20,000 bases of DNA, taken from Candidatus Hermodarchaeota archaeon. Lineage in GTDB: Archaea; Asgardarchaeota; Hermodarchaeia; Hermodarchaeales; Hermodarchaeaceae. The notes beneath the pieces were generated by a model. It saw nothing but the letters and a program-made list of their open reading frames with translations, did not search any database and was not told the origin of the DNA. The stretch spans positions 91,670-111,669 of the forward strand of contig JAEOTB010000037.1 in NCBI GenBank assembly GCA_016840065.1, read 5' to 3'. Position numbers and translations under genes: made by a program. Shown one piece after another: positions 7,456 through 17,185 of the stretch (positions are counted from its first letter, which is position 1; the number at the start of each line of letters is the position of its first letter).

Positions 7456-7563
7456 TGGCGCCCGCACCGGGATTCGAACCCGGGTCCTAGGAGTGACAGT
7501 CCCAGATGATAGACCTGATTCTGCATTCTGGCAGTTATTGCCAAAATCCTACACTATACGGGC
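7456..7563 (-). tRNA. tRNA-Asp(GTC) with a D-loop intron; CCA encoded
   Basis: Acceptor GCCCGTA/TGCGGGC, anticodon arm TGGGA-CTGTCAC-TCCTA, T arm CCGGG-TTCGAAT-CCCGG, then G-CCA. About 30 extra nt lie between A14G15 and G18G19. Confidence 0.9.
7519..7548 (-). other. Candidate tRNA-Asp D-loop intron (~30 nt; ends uncertain by a few nt)
   Basis: GATTTTGGCAATAACTGCCAGAATGCAGAA contains the 9-bp hairpin ATTTTGGCA-ATAAC-TGCCAGAAT (one G-U). Removal gives a normal-length D arm. Confidence 0.75.
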
Positions 7564-7683
7564 TGCAATAGTTTGCTTTGGGTGTTTGGATAAAAAGCTT
7601 TCTCTGCTTAGTGTGCTACGCACTTGGATTAGTGGTGCTGGTCTAAGAAAAGTGGTGGTCCCGCCTCCCGGATTTGAACCAGG

Positions 7684-7712
7684 TTATGGGTCCTTGAAAT
7701 GCTCCAAGGACA
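7684..7712 (-). other. tRNA-Tyr intron 2 at variable loop/T-stem junction (29 nt)
   Basis: Strict BHB: outer helix ACCAG/CTGGT, central ATGG/CCAT, bulges TTT and AAC, inner helix GTCCTTG/CAAGGAC. Cleavage after the 2nd bulge nt gives variable loop TGGTT followed by T stem CCTGG. Confidence 0.9.
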
Positions 7713-7723
7713 AACCATCTGGT

Positions 7724-7777
7724 TACTGCCTTGACTGACACCACGTCATAACCCGGGGGGCTCAGGGTGCGAGTAAT
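7724..7777 (-). other. tRNA-Tyr intron 1, canonical position 37/38 (54 nt)
   Basis: Intron ATTACTC...GGCAGTA. Splicing gives anticodon loop CTGTAGA closed by TCTGG/CCAGA. Confidence 0.88.
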
Positions 7778-7883
7778 CTACAGCCAGACGCTCTACCGGA
7801 CTAAGCTAAGGCGGGTCCTTTTGGTTTGTTGCCTTCGTTGGTACATTCCTTTTAAGATTTTTCTAAGTGTTCGTTGGCGATTG

Positions 7884-8439: not shown

Positions 8440-9045
8440 TTGGTAGATGAGCATCCACTGGAAGAAGTTTCTCTAGATGAAGATAAGGAAGAACCGCGCC
8501 CTCAGCTCCCAGAGGAACCTATAACAGCGAAGCTGTCCAGAGGACGTGTCGTAGTTAAGGGGGAGATGGCCCGTGTTCTATACGACGCTGGGCACTTTGG
8601 CACTTTGAAAAGTGAATTAGAACTCGTCTTAGAGGCTGAGGAAGCCCTCTTACTTATACGACGAAAGCGAATTCAGGTCTTTGACAGAAAAGGAACTGAA
8701 CTAGATTTCTCGGTGTTGCTTCAGATATTATCAGAACGCCACCCTAGATTATGGACGCAGTATCTTGTATACAGTGACCTTAGGAGCAGAGGTTATGTTG
8801 TCCGAACAGGCTATGGAAAAGGACTCTGGTTTCGCGTTTATCCACGGGGCGCCAAACTAAACGAGGCAACAGCGAAATATTTTGTGTGCGCCATATCAGA
8901 GGGTTCACCACTTAAAGTAGCAGAACTTGAGAAGCTTAGCAGTCTAGCGTTAAGGAACCGGAAAAAGCTGATGCTAGCTGTCTTGGATAGACAAGGTGAA
9001 ACAACCTACTATCTAGTTTCACACGCCGACATCACGGCAGACTAG
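8440..9045 (+). CDS. endA: tRNA-splicing endonuclease EndA-family protein, possibly a divergent or non-catalytic subunit
   Basis: 201 aa; YLVYSDLRSRGYVVRTGYGKGLWFRVYPRG and RNRKKLMLAVLDRQGETTYYLVS match the EndA catalytic domain (Tyr and Lys regions present), but the region that normally reads EEHSKYLVH is NEATAKYFV. Confidence 0.85.
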   Translation: MVDEHPLEEVSLDEDKEEPRPQLPEEPITAKLSRGRVVVKGEMARVLYDAGHFGTLKSELELVLEAEEALLLIRRKRIQVFDRKGTELDFSVLLQILSERHPRLWTQYLVYSDLRSRGYVVRTGYGKGLWFRVYPRGAKLNEATAKYFVCAISEGSPLKVAELEKLSSLALRNRKKLMLAVLDRQGETTYYLVSHADITAD

Positions 9046-10375: not shown

Positions 10376-10476
10376 GCGGGGGTTTCCAAGAGACCCTATA
10401 GCCAAGCCTGGTCAAAGGCGCAGGACTTAAGATCCTGTCTCGCAGGAGTTCCCGGGTTCGAAGCCCGGCCCCCGCA
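10376..10476 (+). tRNA. tRNA-Leu(TAA) with a 16-nt intron between positions 8 and 9; CCA not encoded
   Basis: Acceptor GCGGGGG/CCCCCGC, D arm GCCAAGCCTGGTCAAAGGC, anticodon arm CAGGA-CTTAAGA-TCCTG, long variable arm, T arm CCGGG-TTCGAAG-CCCGG. Spliced length is 85 nt. The exact 5' end is ambiguous because GCGGGGG is duplicated 40 bp upstream. Confidence 0.87.
10384..10399 (+). other. tRNA-Leu intron at 8/9 (16 nt)
   Basis: TTCCAAGAGACCCTAT; outer GGC/GCC, central GGGG/CCCT, bulges GTT and ATA. Excision gives T8-A9 before the D stem. Confidence 0.75.
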
Positions 10477-10545: not shown

Positions 10546-10651
10546 TGGAGCCTCGGGCGAGGATTGAACTCACGACCAGCAGCTTACAAGGTTCAACGTT
10601 ACCGGTTTGGTTTCCGGAAACTCTGTCGCTCTACCACTGAGCTACCGAGGC
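10546..10651 (-). tRNA. tRNA-Thr(TGT) with an intron in the anticodon stem; CCA encoded
   Basis: Acceptor GCCTCGG/CCGAGGC identical to tRNA-Thr(GGT), D arm GCTCAGTGGTAGAGC, spliced anticodon arm ACAGC-CTTGTAA-GCTGC (A27-C43 mismatch), T arm GTGAG-TTCAATC-CTCGC, T-CCA. Spliced length 75 nt. Confidence 0.87.
10592..10622 (-). other. tRNA-Thr(TGT) intron at 30/31 (31 nt)
   Basis: Outer GAG/CTT, central CGAC/GTTG, bulges AGA and AAC, inner GTTTCCGG/CCGGTAAC (one T-T mismatch). Confidence 0.8.
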
Positions 10652-10946: not shown

Positions 10947-11065
10947 GGACGCGGTCATAGAAACTGGGTCACTCCCGGTCCCGTTCTGATCCCGGAAGAT
11001 AAGCCGGTTTCGTCTGTCCGAGTACTGATGTCCGAGAGGCTTCGGAAAAGGTCCGAACTGCGTCC
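10947..11065 (+). rRNA. rrf: 5S ribosomal RNA
   Basis: 119 nt; helix I GGACGCGGT/ACTGCGTCC closes the ends; conserved CATAG, ACTCCCGGTCCCGTTCTGATCCCGGAAGATAAGCC, GTACTG and GGAAAAGG segments match archaeal 5S rRNA. Confidence 0.92.
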
Positions 11066-11074
11066 ATTTCTTCT

Positions 11075-14088: not shown

Positions 14089-15186
14089 TTATCGGGTAGT
14101 AGTGTAACTATCGACCTCCCTTAGAAGTTCGTTGGCTTCTGTGTTTTGAATGAAGTATTCACGGACGGGCGTCAATAGTTCTGCAATAGCCTTTGCTGCT
14201 GCTTGTTTTAAATCTAAGGGATGGATTTCGCCTGATGCAAAAAGTGTGTTCAGTTCATCAACAGTTCCAATGCTTAGAGGACCACCATGTTTTTCAGAAC
14301 GCTCGACAGTGAAAACACAATCTTTCTGAGAGAAGAGGAGGTGACGTACATAGCCCAAAACTGGGTTGTCAGTAACCTCCCTAGCAGGACAGTAGGCGTT
14401 ACGTAATTTCTTCATTATTTCTTTAGGTGCATCATGAATGAGAATTGAATCATCGGGTTTAGATTTTGACATCTTCGTGGCAACTGCTAAATCCTGAGCC
14501 GATGTGCTAGAGGATGCCTCCATTCTAGATGACCCGCTCAGCCCTGAGAGTAGGGGAGTGTGAACACCAATTGGTTTCCAGTCGAGCTTAAGTTTCTCGG
14601 CAACTTCTCTTGCCAAGACATGAGCTCGTCGCTGATCCATGCCGCCTAAGCATACTTCGAATTGCTGATTAATAATATCAGATACTTGAAGACAGGGATA
14701 TATGAGCTTCGAGAAGTCTAGTTCTGCATCTTCTCCGCTTCGACCCATGATTGTCATTGAACGCCGAACTCGAGCCAGAGTAAGGCTTTTCGCGACTCGG
14801 AGTGTATCTTCCCAATATTCAAGTTTTTTCATTAGATTCTCAGCTGTTACAACGCGAACTTTTCGGAGATTCACGCCTAATGCTGAAAAACAGTGTCGGA
14901 GATACACAGCACACCGTCTAATTTGATCAATATTACCACCGAATTTGTCGTTTATCTTGGCATGCCATGTCGCGAGTAACACATGCATCTTCACACCCAA
15001 ATCTGAGAGCGTTCGCAACTTTTGAACCCAGACTGCATGACCCAAGTGCATCAATCCGGTAGGTTCAACCCCTACGTAGCCACGAGGTTTCTCTTTTCTA
15101 GCAAGTACAACTTTCAAGTCATCCAGAGTTACAACTTCTTCAGTTTGAAAAACGGCTTTCGCTACAGTTGGAGGCAATTCTTCCAT
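14089..15186 (-). CDS. tyrS: Tyrosyl-tRNA synthetase
   Basis: Class I motifs GVEPTGLMHLGHAVW and KMSKSKPDDSILIHD; archaeal TyrRS C-terminus GDL-like/HPLDLKQAAAKAIAELLTPVREYF. The track ORF starts at 15330; internal Met at 15186 (MEELPPTVAKAV) is the better start. Confidence 0.88.
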   Translation of the reverse strand: MEELPPTVAKAVFQTEEVVTLDDLKVVLARKEKPRGYVGVEPTGLMHLGHAVWVQKLRTLSDLGVKMHVLLATWHAKINDKFGGNIDQIRRCAVYLRHCFSALGVNLRKVRVVTAENLMKKLEYWEDTLRVAKSLTLARVRRSMTIMGRSGEDAELDFSKLIYPCLQVSDIINQQFEVCLGGMDQRRAHVLAREVAEKLKLDWKPIGVHTPLLSGLSGSSRMEASSSTSAQDLAVATKMSKSKPDDSILIHDAPKEIMKKLRNAYCPAREVTDNPVLGYVRHLLFSQKDCVFTVERSEKHGGPLSIGTVDELNTLFASGEIHPLDLKQAAAKAIAELLTPVREYFIQNTEANELLREVDSYTTTR

Positions 15187-15308
15187 TTTTCTATACTCTC
15201 CACTTCGAGGCAACAATAGGGCTGATATAAAGGTTATTGTTTCCTTTTCATGGTAATTCTTTAGAGAAAAAGAAGTCATAATATAATTCAAATCGGTGTC
15301 AACAGAAG

Positions 15309-15728
15309 ATGCCAACCACACGCAATGCATCGTCAGTAATGCAAAAATTACTAGAAGAGGGTTTTAGGAATGGTGTTGCGTTACTGGTGGAATTATCGAA
15401 GAATGGAGTAGTGGTTATTGTGGAGGGTCAAAAGGATGTGATATCCTTAAGGCATTTGGGACTAACAGGACCAATTATTCCTCTTGCAGGGCATAGTGTG
15501 CTCACACTAGCGGAAATGCTTGCAGGGAATGCTCAAGTTTTGATACTTTTCGACTTTGATACTCGGGGCGAGCAACTTACTAGATTATTAATTTCGCAAT
15601 TACACGGAACAGGGACGAGAGTACATCATGATTTTCGTAGGAAACTAAAGAAAGCGTTCAGTTGGCAATCCAGAGTAATCGAAGGATTAAGACCCCTAAA
15701 TAGGGATACAAACACCACAAAGTTTTAA
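15309..15728 (+). CDS. Small Toprim-domain protein
   Basis: 139 aa; VVIVEGQKDVISLRHLGLTGPIIPLAG and VLILFDFDTRGEQLTRLL, the E and DxD Toprim motifs. Confidence 0.85.
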   Translation: MPTTRNASSVMQKLLEEGFRNGVALLVELSKNGVVVIVEGQKDVISLRHLGLTGPIIPLAGHSVLTLAEMLAGNAQVLILFDFDTRGEQLTRLLISQLHGTGTRVHHDFRRKLKKAFSWQSRVIEGLRPLNRDTNTTKF

Positions 15729-15882
15729 TCACCCTCCACTCCAGTCTCATCTTGTATCATGCTTACATACCGTCAAGCCCAGTCTTGACGTCTTAACTTG
15801 GTATATCATTCACAGATATGATTGTGGTGAAGGAATAACACACCACTCATAACACATAACCAATCAAAATCATCCCTAGGTG

Positions 15883-17185
15883 ATGAACTTGGGTTCAAGT
15901 ACGCCTAGTAGTGCTACTACAAAGTATGAAATCCGATGTAAAATAGAAATTAGCGGAGTTGTTGAGACTCCAGATGTCGTTGGAGCGCTCTTTGGTCAAA
16001 CAGAGGGCCTACACTTCATGATACGCGTTTCATGAAGGGGTAATCGGTGAAGATTTAGATCTGAGAGAACTGCAGCAGTCTGGACGAATAGGTCGAATAA
16101 AGGTTGAACTACACTCAGAGGGAGGAAAATCCCGCGGAATAATAGTAATCCCTTGCAGCCTTGACCGTACTGAAACAGCCATTCTTGCAGCGGCATTGGA
16201 GACAGTTGACAGAGTTGGACCGTGTTCAGCGAAAATCACTCTGGAGAAGGTTGAAGATGTCCGTGACTCTAAACGCAAACAGATTATTGATCGAGCTGTG
16301 GCTTTACTGCGTGTATGGGAGGGTGAAACCTCTCCAGGGGCACAGGAGATAACCGATAAAGTTACACGTGAAACGAAGACAGCAGAAATCACTCGATTTA
16401 ATGGGCTTCCTGCGGGTCCTTCTGTTCAAGAATCAGATACAATAATCGTCGTAGAAGGGAGGGCTGATGTCCTCGCATTGCTCCGAGCAGGAATAAAGAA
16501 CGTTGTTGCAGTTGAGGGTACCAGTATTCCTCCTTCCATCATAAAACTAGCAAAAACAAAAACGATTATTGCCTTCCTTGACGGCGATAGGGGTGGCGAC
16601 TTGATTCTTAAAGAATTGTCTCAGGTTACAGATATCAAGTTTGTAGCGCGAGCGCCAGCGGGACGTGAGGTTGAAGAACTTACAACAAAGGAGATAACCA
16701 AAGCTCTTAGAAATAAAGTGCCTGCATCCCAGGTTGTTGGACGGATAAAACGAGGGGTAAGCGAGTCGGCAACAACAAGAGCCTCTTCAACTCCAAAACG
16801 CAGAACTCGCCGAACAACACAGAAAACAACTGCACCGCGGCGAACTGCAACCCGTTCTAAGACCACGACCAGAAGTGTTACACGACCAAAAAGTGGAAGC
16901 ATCCCTAAACCGATTCGAGAATTAGCTGAGAAAATACAAGAGACAATGACTGCAATGATACTCGATAAGGATAAGAAGGTCTTGAAAGAAGTTCATGTCG
17001 CAGAACTGGCTTCAATGCTGCAAGAAATAGAAAAAGCGAAAACAATCATTCTCGATGGTGTAATCACTCAGCGACTGGTAGACATCGCTGGTGAACGTGG
17101 AGTGACCCTAATCATAGGCGCGAGAACCGGTAAAATTGTAAAGAGACCCGTGAAAATCAAGATACACACATTCAACGATTTATGA
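15883..17185 (+). CDS. dnaG: Archaeal DnaG-type primase, interrupted by a 31-nt intron-like insertion (exon 1 15883-16012, exon 2 16044-17185)
   Basis: Exon 1: [43 protein letters not shown]; exon 2: (L)[60 protein letters not shown]...[26 protein letters not shown]...[13 protein letters not shown]. Joined exons total 1272 nt = 424 codons, in frame. The ORF track only shows the 3' part from 16196. Confidence 0.88.
16013..16043 (+). other. Candidate protein-gene BHB intron in dnaG (31 nt)
   Basis: ACTTCATGATACGCGTTTCATGAAGGGGTAA; inner 8-bp helix CTTCATGA/TCATGAAG, central GCCT/GGGT (2 G-U), bulges ACA and AAT. Outer helix is weak. Excision gives GGC CTA C|TC GGT = G-L-L-G. Confidence 0.8.

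Follow-up and report, generated by a model that had tools for sequence, protein, structure and literature searches.

The window analysed here, a stretch of 20,000 nucleotides (nt) from a Candidatus Hermodarchaeota archaeon (assembly GCA_016840065.1, contig JAEOTB010000037.1, positions 91,670 to 111,669), carries a dnaG gene interrupted by 31 nt that have the properties expected for an intron of bulge-helix-bulge (BHB) type. Hermodarchaeota is listed in the NCBI taxonomy as a phylum of Promethearchaeati. The elements of the interrupted gene, with helix lengths in base pairs (bp), are as follows.

15878..15884, plus strand: Shine-Dalgarno-like AGGTGAT upstream of dnaG, visible in the letters themselves and found again ahead of the start codon in the related loci L001, L002, and L095
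15889..16012, plus strand: dnaG exon 1, 124 nt, comprising 41 codons plus base 1 of a Leu codon that the intron splits
16007..16010, plus strand: 5' strand of the central 4-bp helix H, GCCT, in exon 1, pairing with 16038-16041
16011..16013, plus strand: 5' 3-nt bulge ACA; predicted cut after C16012, between bulge bases 2 and 3
16013..16043, plus strand: candidate BHB-type intron, 31 nt, ACTTCATGATACGCGTTTCATGAAGGGGTAA; the unique excision that restores CTAC/TCGG
16014..16037, plus strand: inner hairpin h' with 8-bp arms (16014-16021 and 16030-16037) and a loop at 16022-16029
16038..16041, plus strand: 3' strand of helix H, GGGT, in the intron; T/C variation at 16041 still pairs with G16007
16042..16044, plus strand: 3' bulge or internal loop AAT; predicted cut after A16043
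16044..17185, plus strand: dnaG exon 2, opening with bases 2 and 3 of the Leu codon and containing the Toprim core, the C-terminal domain, and the stop codon at its end

A sequence-only reading of this stretch had proposed that the dnaG frame is broken by 31 nt that contain an in-frame TGA and also shift the frame, and direct reading and translation bear this out. The exon-1 frame, whether entered at GTG 15880, ATG 15883, or TTG 15889, continues as HFMIRVS and stops at TGA 16033-16035, while the remainder of dnaG lies downstream of the insert in a different frame, where the sole long open reading frame (ORF) is 16196-17185 (329 amino acids, aa). The public database entry for dnaG of this genome (P0001) consists of that ORF only, at 100% identity and starting from TTG 16196, and the unspliced mRNA could yield just a peptide of 48-51 aa. 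In an exhaustive trial of excisions, deletion of the 31 nt at 16013-16043 alone yielded CTA C/TC GGT GAA GAT (the slash marking the junction), which encodes GLLGED as in all homologues, so that a functional product would be restored. The predicted spliced junction reads GAGGGCCTAC followed directly by TCGGTGAAGAT, with the peptide TEGLLGEDLDLR across it. The spliced product of 421 aa matches the NCBIfam model of archaeal DnaG (NF003108) over profile positions 1-419 of 419 with 514 bits, compared with positions 82-419 only and 360 bits for the annotated 329-aa ORF. It is therefore a full-length member of the archaeal DnaG family (NF003108/PRK04031), with both the N-terminal domain and the Toprim core, and Pfam Toprim families are detected on homologues. 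The proposal that removal of 16013-16043 rebuilds the archaeal DnaG motif is thus upheld by both the uniqueness of the excision and the full-length profile match. The span of 15883-17185 given earlier for the gene holds at its end but probably not at its start: ATG 15883 is out of frame in L001, and TTG 15889 is the sole possible start in both L001 and L002. Conserved in these two loci and placed 4 nt past AGGTGAT, TTG 15889 is the likely start, with GTG 15880 and ATG 15883 as in-frame alternatives in the window.

Comparison with related dnaG loci, a check that the sequence-only reading had called for, places the insert without reference to its structure. The codons for FGQTEG and LDLRELQ are separated by exactly 15 nt, in a single frame, in 75+ outgroup dnaG loci from Bathyarchaeia and others. 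The spacing is 46 nt (15+31) in the window and L093, 44 nt (15+29) in L001 and L002, and 43 nt (15+28) in L010, L011, L090, L091, L092, L094, L096, L097, L098, and L099. Accordingly, an insert of 28, 29, or 31 nt is present at the identical site in 14 loci and assemblies from different projects (the window and 13 relatives), always flanked by CTAC and TCGG, and is missing from L095 and from the 75+ outgroup genes. Since base 16012 differs from base 16043 and base 16013 differs from base 16044, the boundary cannot slide, and the intron would be 16013-16043 to the nucleotide; its predicted boundaries are set by comparison, independently of any fold. The insert lengths also differ modulo 3, and the insert therefore has no fixed translational relation to the frame. 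As in pre-mRNA BHB introns of the cbf5 type, the insert lies inside a coding sequence, contains no ORF, keeps its position, and varies in length and sequence. Neither the window nor the 99 loci yielded another copy of the intron sequence, which is therefore not a repeated element within that material.

The structure formed at these boundaries agrees with the one proposed earlier, in that the 8-bp hairpin, the 4-bp GCCT/GGGT pairing, and the 3-nt bulges ACA and AAT are all present and correspond to the minimum free energy (MFE) structure from RNAfold. The hairpin arms CTTCATGA and TCATGAAG occupy 16014-21 and 16030-37, and helix H consists of G16007-U16041, C16008-G16040, C16009-G16039, and U16010-G16038. 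The boundaries derived from comparison land between bulge bases 2 and 3 at both ends of helix H, which puts one predicted cleavage site on either side of this central helix of 4 bp, as is characteristic of a BHB motif. The 5' site (AC/A) is clean, its bulge staying unpaired in the MFE fold as well as in the consensus that RNAalifold gives for the 14 loci, and the 3' site (AA/U) is at the symmetric position. The same architecture is recovered by RNAfold in all 13 loci that were folded singly and by RNAalifold for the 14-sequence alignment. Across the 14 sequences, 94% of alignment cells are paired, a share that falls to 43%-54% once the 3' partners are shifted along the sequence. Pairing of helix H is kept in 14/14 sequences through one-sided changes (GU to GC and CG to UG, in either direction), and the inner helix h', of 8-9 bp, is paired in 91% of cells across relatives. 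Two-sided changes occur in three inner-helix pairs, namely UA to UG to CG, an exchange of AU and GC (four sequences), and an exchange of UA and AU.

Selection and synteny indicate that the interrupted gene is functional. In pairwise Nei-Gojobori comparisons of the 14 loci, the ratio of nonsynonymous to synonymous divergence (dN/dS) is 0.036 for exon 1 (31 codons) and 0.038 for exon 2 (60 codons), with a synonymous divergence (dS) of 1.2-1.5. Because its ratio is like that of exon 2, exon 1 is retained as coding sequence equally with exon 2, though the two are separated in the DNA. The interrupted dnaG appears to be the only full-length dnaG at each locus, and every relative keeps its surroundings, which run from TYW2/Trm5 and Tyr/Trp-tRNA synthetase through a small Toprim protein, dnaG itself, and a protein of 94 aa to AtpD, NAC, a PUA protein, and PAN. 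In L091 and L092, the PUA/TGT_C2 gene was considered as a second interrupted gene on account of calls of 70-75 aa; tblastn gave one continuous match, and these are merely short gene calls.

The spread of the insert was surveyed in the 120 best DnaG protein clusters, the best relatives of which bear Asgard labels; the nearest genomic loci are L001 (Hermodarchaeota YT_063, 92% aa identity) and L002 (H02S_Hermod_124, 88%). A scan of genome contigs yielded these two members of the clade and a scan of metagenomes another two, and the others were reached through the contigs that encode the proteins. Fifty of the 120 clusters have a damaged N-terminus, either by wrong-frame read-through (19), in which exon 1 plus intron is read in the exon-2 frame, or by a downstream start (31). 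Among the 120, these 50 are all of the matches with at least 62% identity except P0049. A neighbour-joining tree of the Toprim core places the 50 clusters in one clade whose only intact member is P0049, which corresponds to L095. The simplest history would be a single intron gain at the base of a Hermodarchaeia-level clade. Approximately 50 DnaG entries (P0001-P0048, P0052, P0061, and P0076) are mis-annotated with a truncated or wrong-frame start on account of the intron, and the submitters' labels for them are Thor-, Hod-, Odin-, Hermod-, and Promethearchaeota, despite their forming one clade. Two distant dnaG matches, L083 161-1576 and L086 992-2419, are longer (1416-1428 nt vs ~1150), carry the motifs LYGQTDG and IYGQTSG, and are intact at the intron site.

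L095, the clade member without the insert, reads gagggcCTAC followed directly by TCGGTGAAGAT. Its protein is 99.65% identical to P0048, which derives from a 74-kb genomic contig in 3300042731 on which dnaG was called as 49 aa plus 369 aa, with coordinates that imply an insert of ~34 nt. L095 represents either a recent and precise intron loss or an RNA-derived contig, and it displays the predicted junction either way. A literature search by sample identifiers gave nothing on a metatranscriptome origin for its sample, JGI 3300036486, in which L095 is Ga0395754_008471, and a search for more intron-less or complementary DNA (cDNA)-like members of the clade with a 92-aa junction query returned short fragments only, with at most 78% identity. 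At 1141-1160, L095 also has an extra A in a homopolymer (A7 vs the A6 implied by P0048) that shifts the frame of the dnaG 3' end. This could be an assembly or a reverse-transcription error, and is a weak hint of an RNA-derived contig.

The window also contains a homologue of the tRNA-splicing endonuclease EndA and intron-bearing tRNAs, which are listed here with other genes near them and next to dnaG.

8440..9045, plus strand: EndA homologue, 201 aa, with Pfam tRNA_int_endo_N and tRNA_int_endo and TIGR00324 endA above cut-off
7456-7563, minus strand: tRNA-Asp, mis-called by ARAGORN/Rfam as 7456/9-7532 with a poor 5' half; acceptor 5' strand GCCCGTA at 7563 to 7557
7547 to 7520, minus strand: 28-nt BHB intron in the D-loop of this tRNA-Asp; helix TGTA/TGCA, bulges GG/A and GA/A, 8-bp hairpin
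7659-7815, minus strand: tRNA detected by Rfam only, with two insertions, the first in the anticodon region (~54 nt) and the second ahead of the T-arm (29 nt, 7712 to 7684)
10549-10651, minus strand: tRNA matched by Rfam and missed by ARAGORN, whose anticodon arm contains an insertion of ~31 nt that may be at a non-canonical position
10399-10468, plus strand: tRNA matched by Rfam and missed by ARAGORN, covering model positions 8-63 only, with anticodon UAA and a long variable arm
10947-11066, plus strand: 5S rRNA gene among the tRNA genes (Rfam, 69.6 bits)
14089-15330, minus strand: Tyr/Trp-tRNA synthetase ORF, 413 aa (365-384 aa in relatives), overlapping the start of the Toprim gene
15309-15728, plus strand: stand-alone small Toprim protein, 139 aa, with Pfam Toprim and an NCBIfam PRK04017-like match below cut-off

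Rfam thus detects intron-bearing tRNAs in the window that ARAGORN missed or mis-called. Two of the tRNA introns, 7547 to 7520 and 7712 to 7684, lie at non-canonical sites and share the geometry of the dnaG insert, with a helix of 4 bp, bulges of 3 nt, and a hairpin of 8-9 bp, and the latter has a clean geometry with the helix ATGG/CCAT and a 9-bp hairpin. The acceptor stem of the tRNA at 10399-10468 may be interrupted or located elsewhere. The EndA homologue has an acidic N-terminal extension and would be a candidate component of the endonuclease acting on the dnaG intron. Asgard archaea are reported to possess an (alpha-beta)2 EndA with an L1 loop that confers broad specificity (PMC5829648), and non-canonical introns are abundant in their tRNA genes (PMC11291895). 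Relaxed BHB motifs as a class are cleaved by heteromeric EndAs (PMC5829648, PMC2738675), including the relaxed motif of cbf5 (PMC2738675), and cleavage between bulge residues 2 and 3 is the rule for both cbf5 introns and tRNA BHB motifs (PMC2738675). With respect to the genes next to dnaG, the small Toprim protein is encoded directly upstream in all relatives (130-139 aa), and the true start of the Tyr/Trp-tRNA synthetase is probably an internal Met (around MEELPP...).

Taken together, the cut geometry, the junction, the conserved site with its varying insert length and sequence, the compensatory changes, the selection on both exons, the full-length product, the single clade of damaged DnaG clusters, and the EndA homologue and tRNA introns in the window support the interpretation of 16013-16043 as a BHB pre-mRNA intron, to which we assign a probability of roughly 0.9. 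According to this interpretation, dnaG would be transcribed with the 31-nt intervening sequence, and the exon-intron borders of the pre-mRNA would fold as a relaxed BHB with a 4-bp central helix, the ACA 5' bulge, and an 8-bp intron hairpin. The 3' cleavage site would lie within AAU, which forms either a bulge of 3 nt or a small internal loop and is bounded by an outer helix of very few base pairs. An EndA of the broad-specificity (alpha-beta)2 type would cut after C16012 and after A16043, and an RtcB-type ligase would join the exons and rebuild the Leu codon C/UC, such that the full-length DnaG of 421 aa would be translated from the spliced mRNA only. We infer that splicing occurs in vivo and that EndA and RtcB are its agents.

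Several observations weigh against this interpretation or limit the evidence for it. The outer helix h comprises just 1-2 bp within invariant coding sequence and falls short of a strict hBHBh' motif. The AAU at the 3' site is a clean 3-nt bulge only if G16006 pairs with C16045, and the MFE fold instead has a 2x2 loop with U16044-A16004 and C16045-G16003. Because the outer helix is only 1-2 bp, the dnaG intron belongs to the relaxed BHB class (HBh'-like), as the sequence-only reading had concluded from the same weakness. The covariation is limited to six cells in three pairs among phylogenetically related sequences, and because it is modest and the sequences are related, we let it support the interpretation without deciding it. 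In stability, the fold exceeds shuffled sequences by a modest margin only (z = -2.3; 6/200 shuffles as good), and a loose relaxed-BHB (helix-bulge-helix) motif is unenriched in the window, with 89 matches vs 86+-7 in shuffled sequence. With the motif as frequent in shuffles, the evidence is therefore the positional coincidence and not the motif itself, and the conservation among relatives strengthens it. Sixteen matches have an inner helix of 8 bp or more; set against ~1.9 million combinations of position, length, and strand, they put the chance of the motif falling on the required boundary pair at roughly 1e-5. Two of the scanner's other strong matches are the tRNA introns, which serve as its positive control. 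Finally, the EndA homologue in the window lacks the catalytic His (EATAKY vs KEHSVY in an alignment with M. jannaschii EndA, 1a79) and keeps the Tyr and Lys; because this His is replaced, the protein is probably a structural subunit and may be non-catalytic and beta-like. A catalytic EndA subunit and RtcB are not found in the 20,000-nt window and would lie outside it.

Other explanations account for less of this evidence. A ribosome might bypass the insert, taking off at GGC 16006-16008, landing at GGG 16038-16040, and skipping ~30 nt. The exon-2 frame is open through the 3' end of the insert and is used by gene callers, the product would have the same length as other DnaGs, and the hairpin with a nearby stop codon resembles the bypass of T4 gene 60. 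However, the product would read G-V-I-G, putting V/A and I/F at the two positions that all other DnaGs fill with L-L/F, and the variation of the supposed codons (GTA/GCA and ATC/TTC) is just that expected of a G.U/G-C pair in a helix and of a base in a bulge. The codon for take-off (GGC or GGT) does not match the landing codon (GGG), L095 encodes CTA CTC, which is the product of splicing and not of a hop, and the exact BHB geometry would be left unexplained; bypass is thus highly improbable. Much the same can be said of a split or truncated gene, in which exon 1 would encode a separate peptide of ~48 aa and DnaG would be made from an internal start without splicing. It is true that the databases hold the 329-aa ORF from TTG 16196 and that some relatives have an ATG or TTG at the DLRELQ position. 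Nevertheless, such start positions are unconserved in relatives, no start codon lies between the exon-2-frame stop (TGA 16019-21) and TTG 16196 in the window, and the 50 codons at 16046-16195 are under strong purifying selection (dN/dS 0.038). Moreover, exon 1 ends in a split codon and runs seamlessly into exon 2 in every intron-less homologue, and we consider it very unlikely that the gene works in two parts.

The 31 nt might also be removed from the RNA by an endonuclease and ligase other than EndA and RtcB. The weak outer helix and the absence of a catalytic EndA subunit and RtcB from the window would fit this explanation, but the EndA rule is obeyed at both cut sites, EndA is needed for the tRNA introns in the window that match the insert in geometry and size, and a self-splicing intron would have to be far longer, which leaves little room for a different pair of enzymes. 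The shortness of the insert and its shift of the frame likewise rule out group I and II introns and inteins, and the variation of its length modulo 3 rules out programmed frameshifting. Least probable of all is an assembly or sequencing error or a decaying pseudogene, even though errors in metagenome-assembled genomes usually show themselves as inserts that shift the frame. Fourteen independent assemblies from different projects carry the insert at this one site, with structured variation in length and sequence, both exons are under strong purifying selection, and synteny is conserved around the apparently sole full-length dnaG of each locus. The sequence-only reading had named such an error or disruption as grounds for abandoning the intron, and the 14 assemblies and the dN/dS values effectively refute it.

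With the BHB pre-mRNA intron as the preferred interpretation, dnaG would be, as far as could be found, the second family of protein-coding genes in which a BHB intron is present, and the first such case from Asgard archaea. As of 2020, cbf5 was the only BHB intron reported in archaeal mRNA besides a 5' untranslated region (5'-UTR) case in Haloferax (PMC7714728), and no prior report of a dnaG intron or of a BHB intron in an Asgard protein gene was found in the full-text literature, a search that did not cover subscription-only papers. The sequence-only reading, which took cbf5 as the standard precedent and knew of no case in dnaG, agrees with the searchable literature, in which cbf5 is the only coding-region precedent (PMC7714728). 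Since 2002, cbf5 has been the sole archaeal coding sequence known to need splicing by protein enzymes, and a second independent case would show that the use of the tRNA-splicing pathway on mRNA is not a crenarchaeal one-off. The dnaG intron has been conserved throughout an Asgard clade, within a core gene of information processing. It would bring mRNA splicing by endonuclease and ligase into the closest archaeal relatives of eukaryotes, and in eukaryotes mRNAs of the HAC1/XBP1 type are spliced by the same enzyme families. In addition, the ~50 truncated or wrong-frame clusters affect pipelines for completeness or phylogenomics in which DnaG serves as a marker, and the intron offers a short and well-defined substrate for studies of Asgard EndA specificity. 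It is conceivable, if rather doubtful at present, that the dnaG intron is the visible tip of routine and possibly regulated EndA/RtcB splicing of mRNA in Hermodarchaeia and other Asgard archaea, with mini-introns of 20-40 nt in other genes hidden as "truncated" or "frameshifted" ORFs, and that this intron was kept for a long evolutionary period by tying the output of DnaG, an exosome subunit, to RNA-processing capacity.

Among known systems, the splicing of HAC1 and XBP1 mRNA by IRE1 and tRNA ligase or RtcB resembles the proposed dnaG splicing in that a short, frame-shifting mRNA intron is cut by a protein endonuclease at stem-loop sites, is sealed by tRNA ligase (RtcB in metazoa), and determines which protein is made. 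It differs in its endonuclease (IRE1), its cleavage motif, and its regulation by stress; no evidence of regulation was found for the dnaG intron. The BHB intron in the 5'-UTR of HVO_1309 of Haloferax volcanii (Schwarz 2020, PMC7714728) is likewise an EndA substrate within an mRNA. Unlike the dnaG intron, it lies in an untranslated leader, leaves the frame uninterrupted, is associated with a euryarchaeal alpha'2 EndA, and has been verified experimentally. The non-canonical BHB introns of TACK and Asgard tRNAs (Marck & Grosjean 2003; PMC5829648; PMC11291895) share with the dnaG intron the 4-bp helix, the 3-nt bulges, the inner hairpin, the size class, and presumably the enzymes, as the examples at 7520-7547 and 7684-7712 on the minus strand illustrate, whereas the dnaG intron is in an mRNA and has no tRNA body to supply an outer helix or positioning.

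The closest parallel is the cbf5 pre-mRNA intron of Crenarchaeota (Watanabe 2002; Yoshinari 2006; Yokobori 2009, PMC2738675). The dnaG intron occurs in a different gene and a different lineage (Hermodarchaeota, Asgard) and has no evident sequence similarity to the cbf5 introns, and the splicing of cbf5 was demonstrated by cDNA and in vitro cleavage, whereas that of dnaG is deduced from sequence. Nevertheless, both are short, ORF-less introns in a coding sequence (16-44 bp in cbf5 and 28-31 nt in dnaG) that split a codon between its first and second base, and both have a relaxed or unconventional BHB with cuts between bulge residues 2 and 3. Both are also clade-restricted with apparent loss, and their hosts belong to lineages reported to have a heteromeric, broad-specificity EndA. 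Finally, both genes encode proteins of RNA metabolism, the pseudouridine synthase Cbf5 and the archaeal exosome subunit DnaG (PMC7667871), and one may speculate that this shared role of the host proteins has a regulatory meaning.

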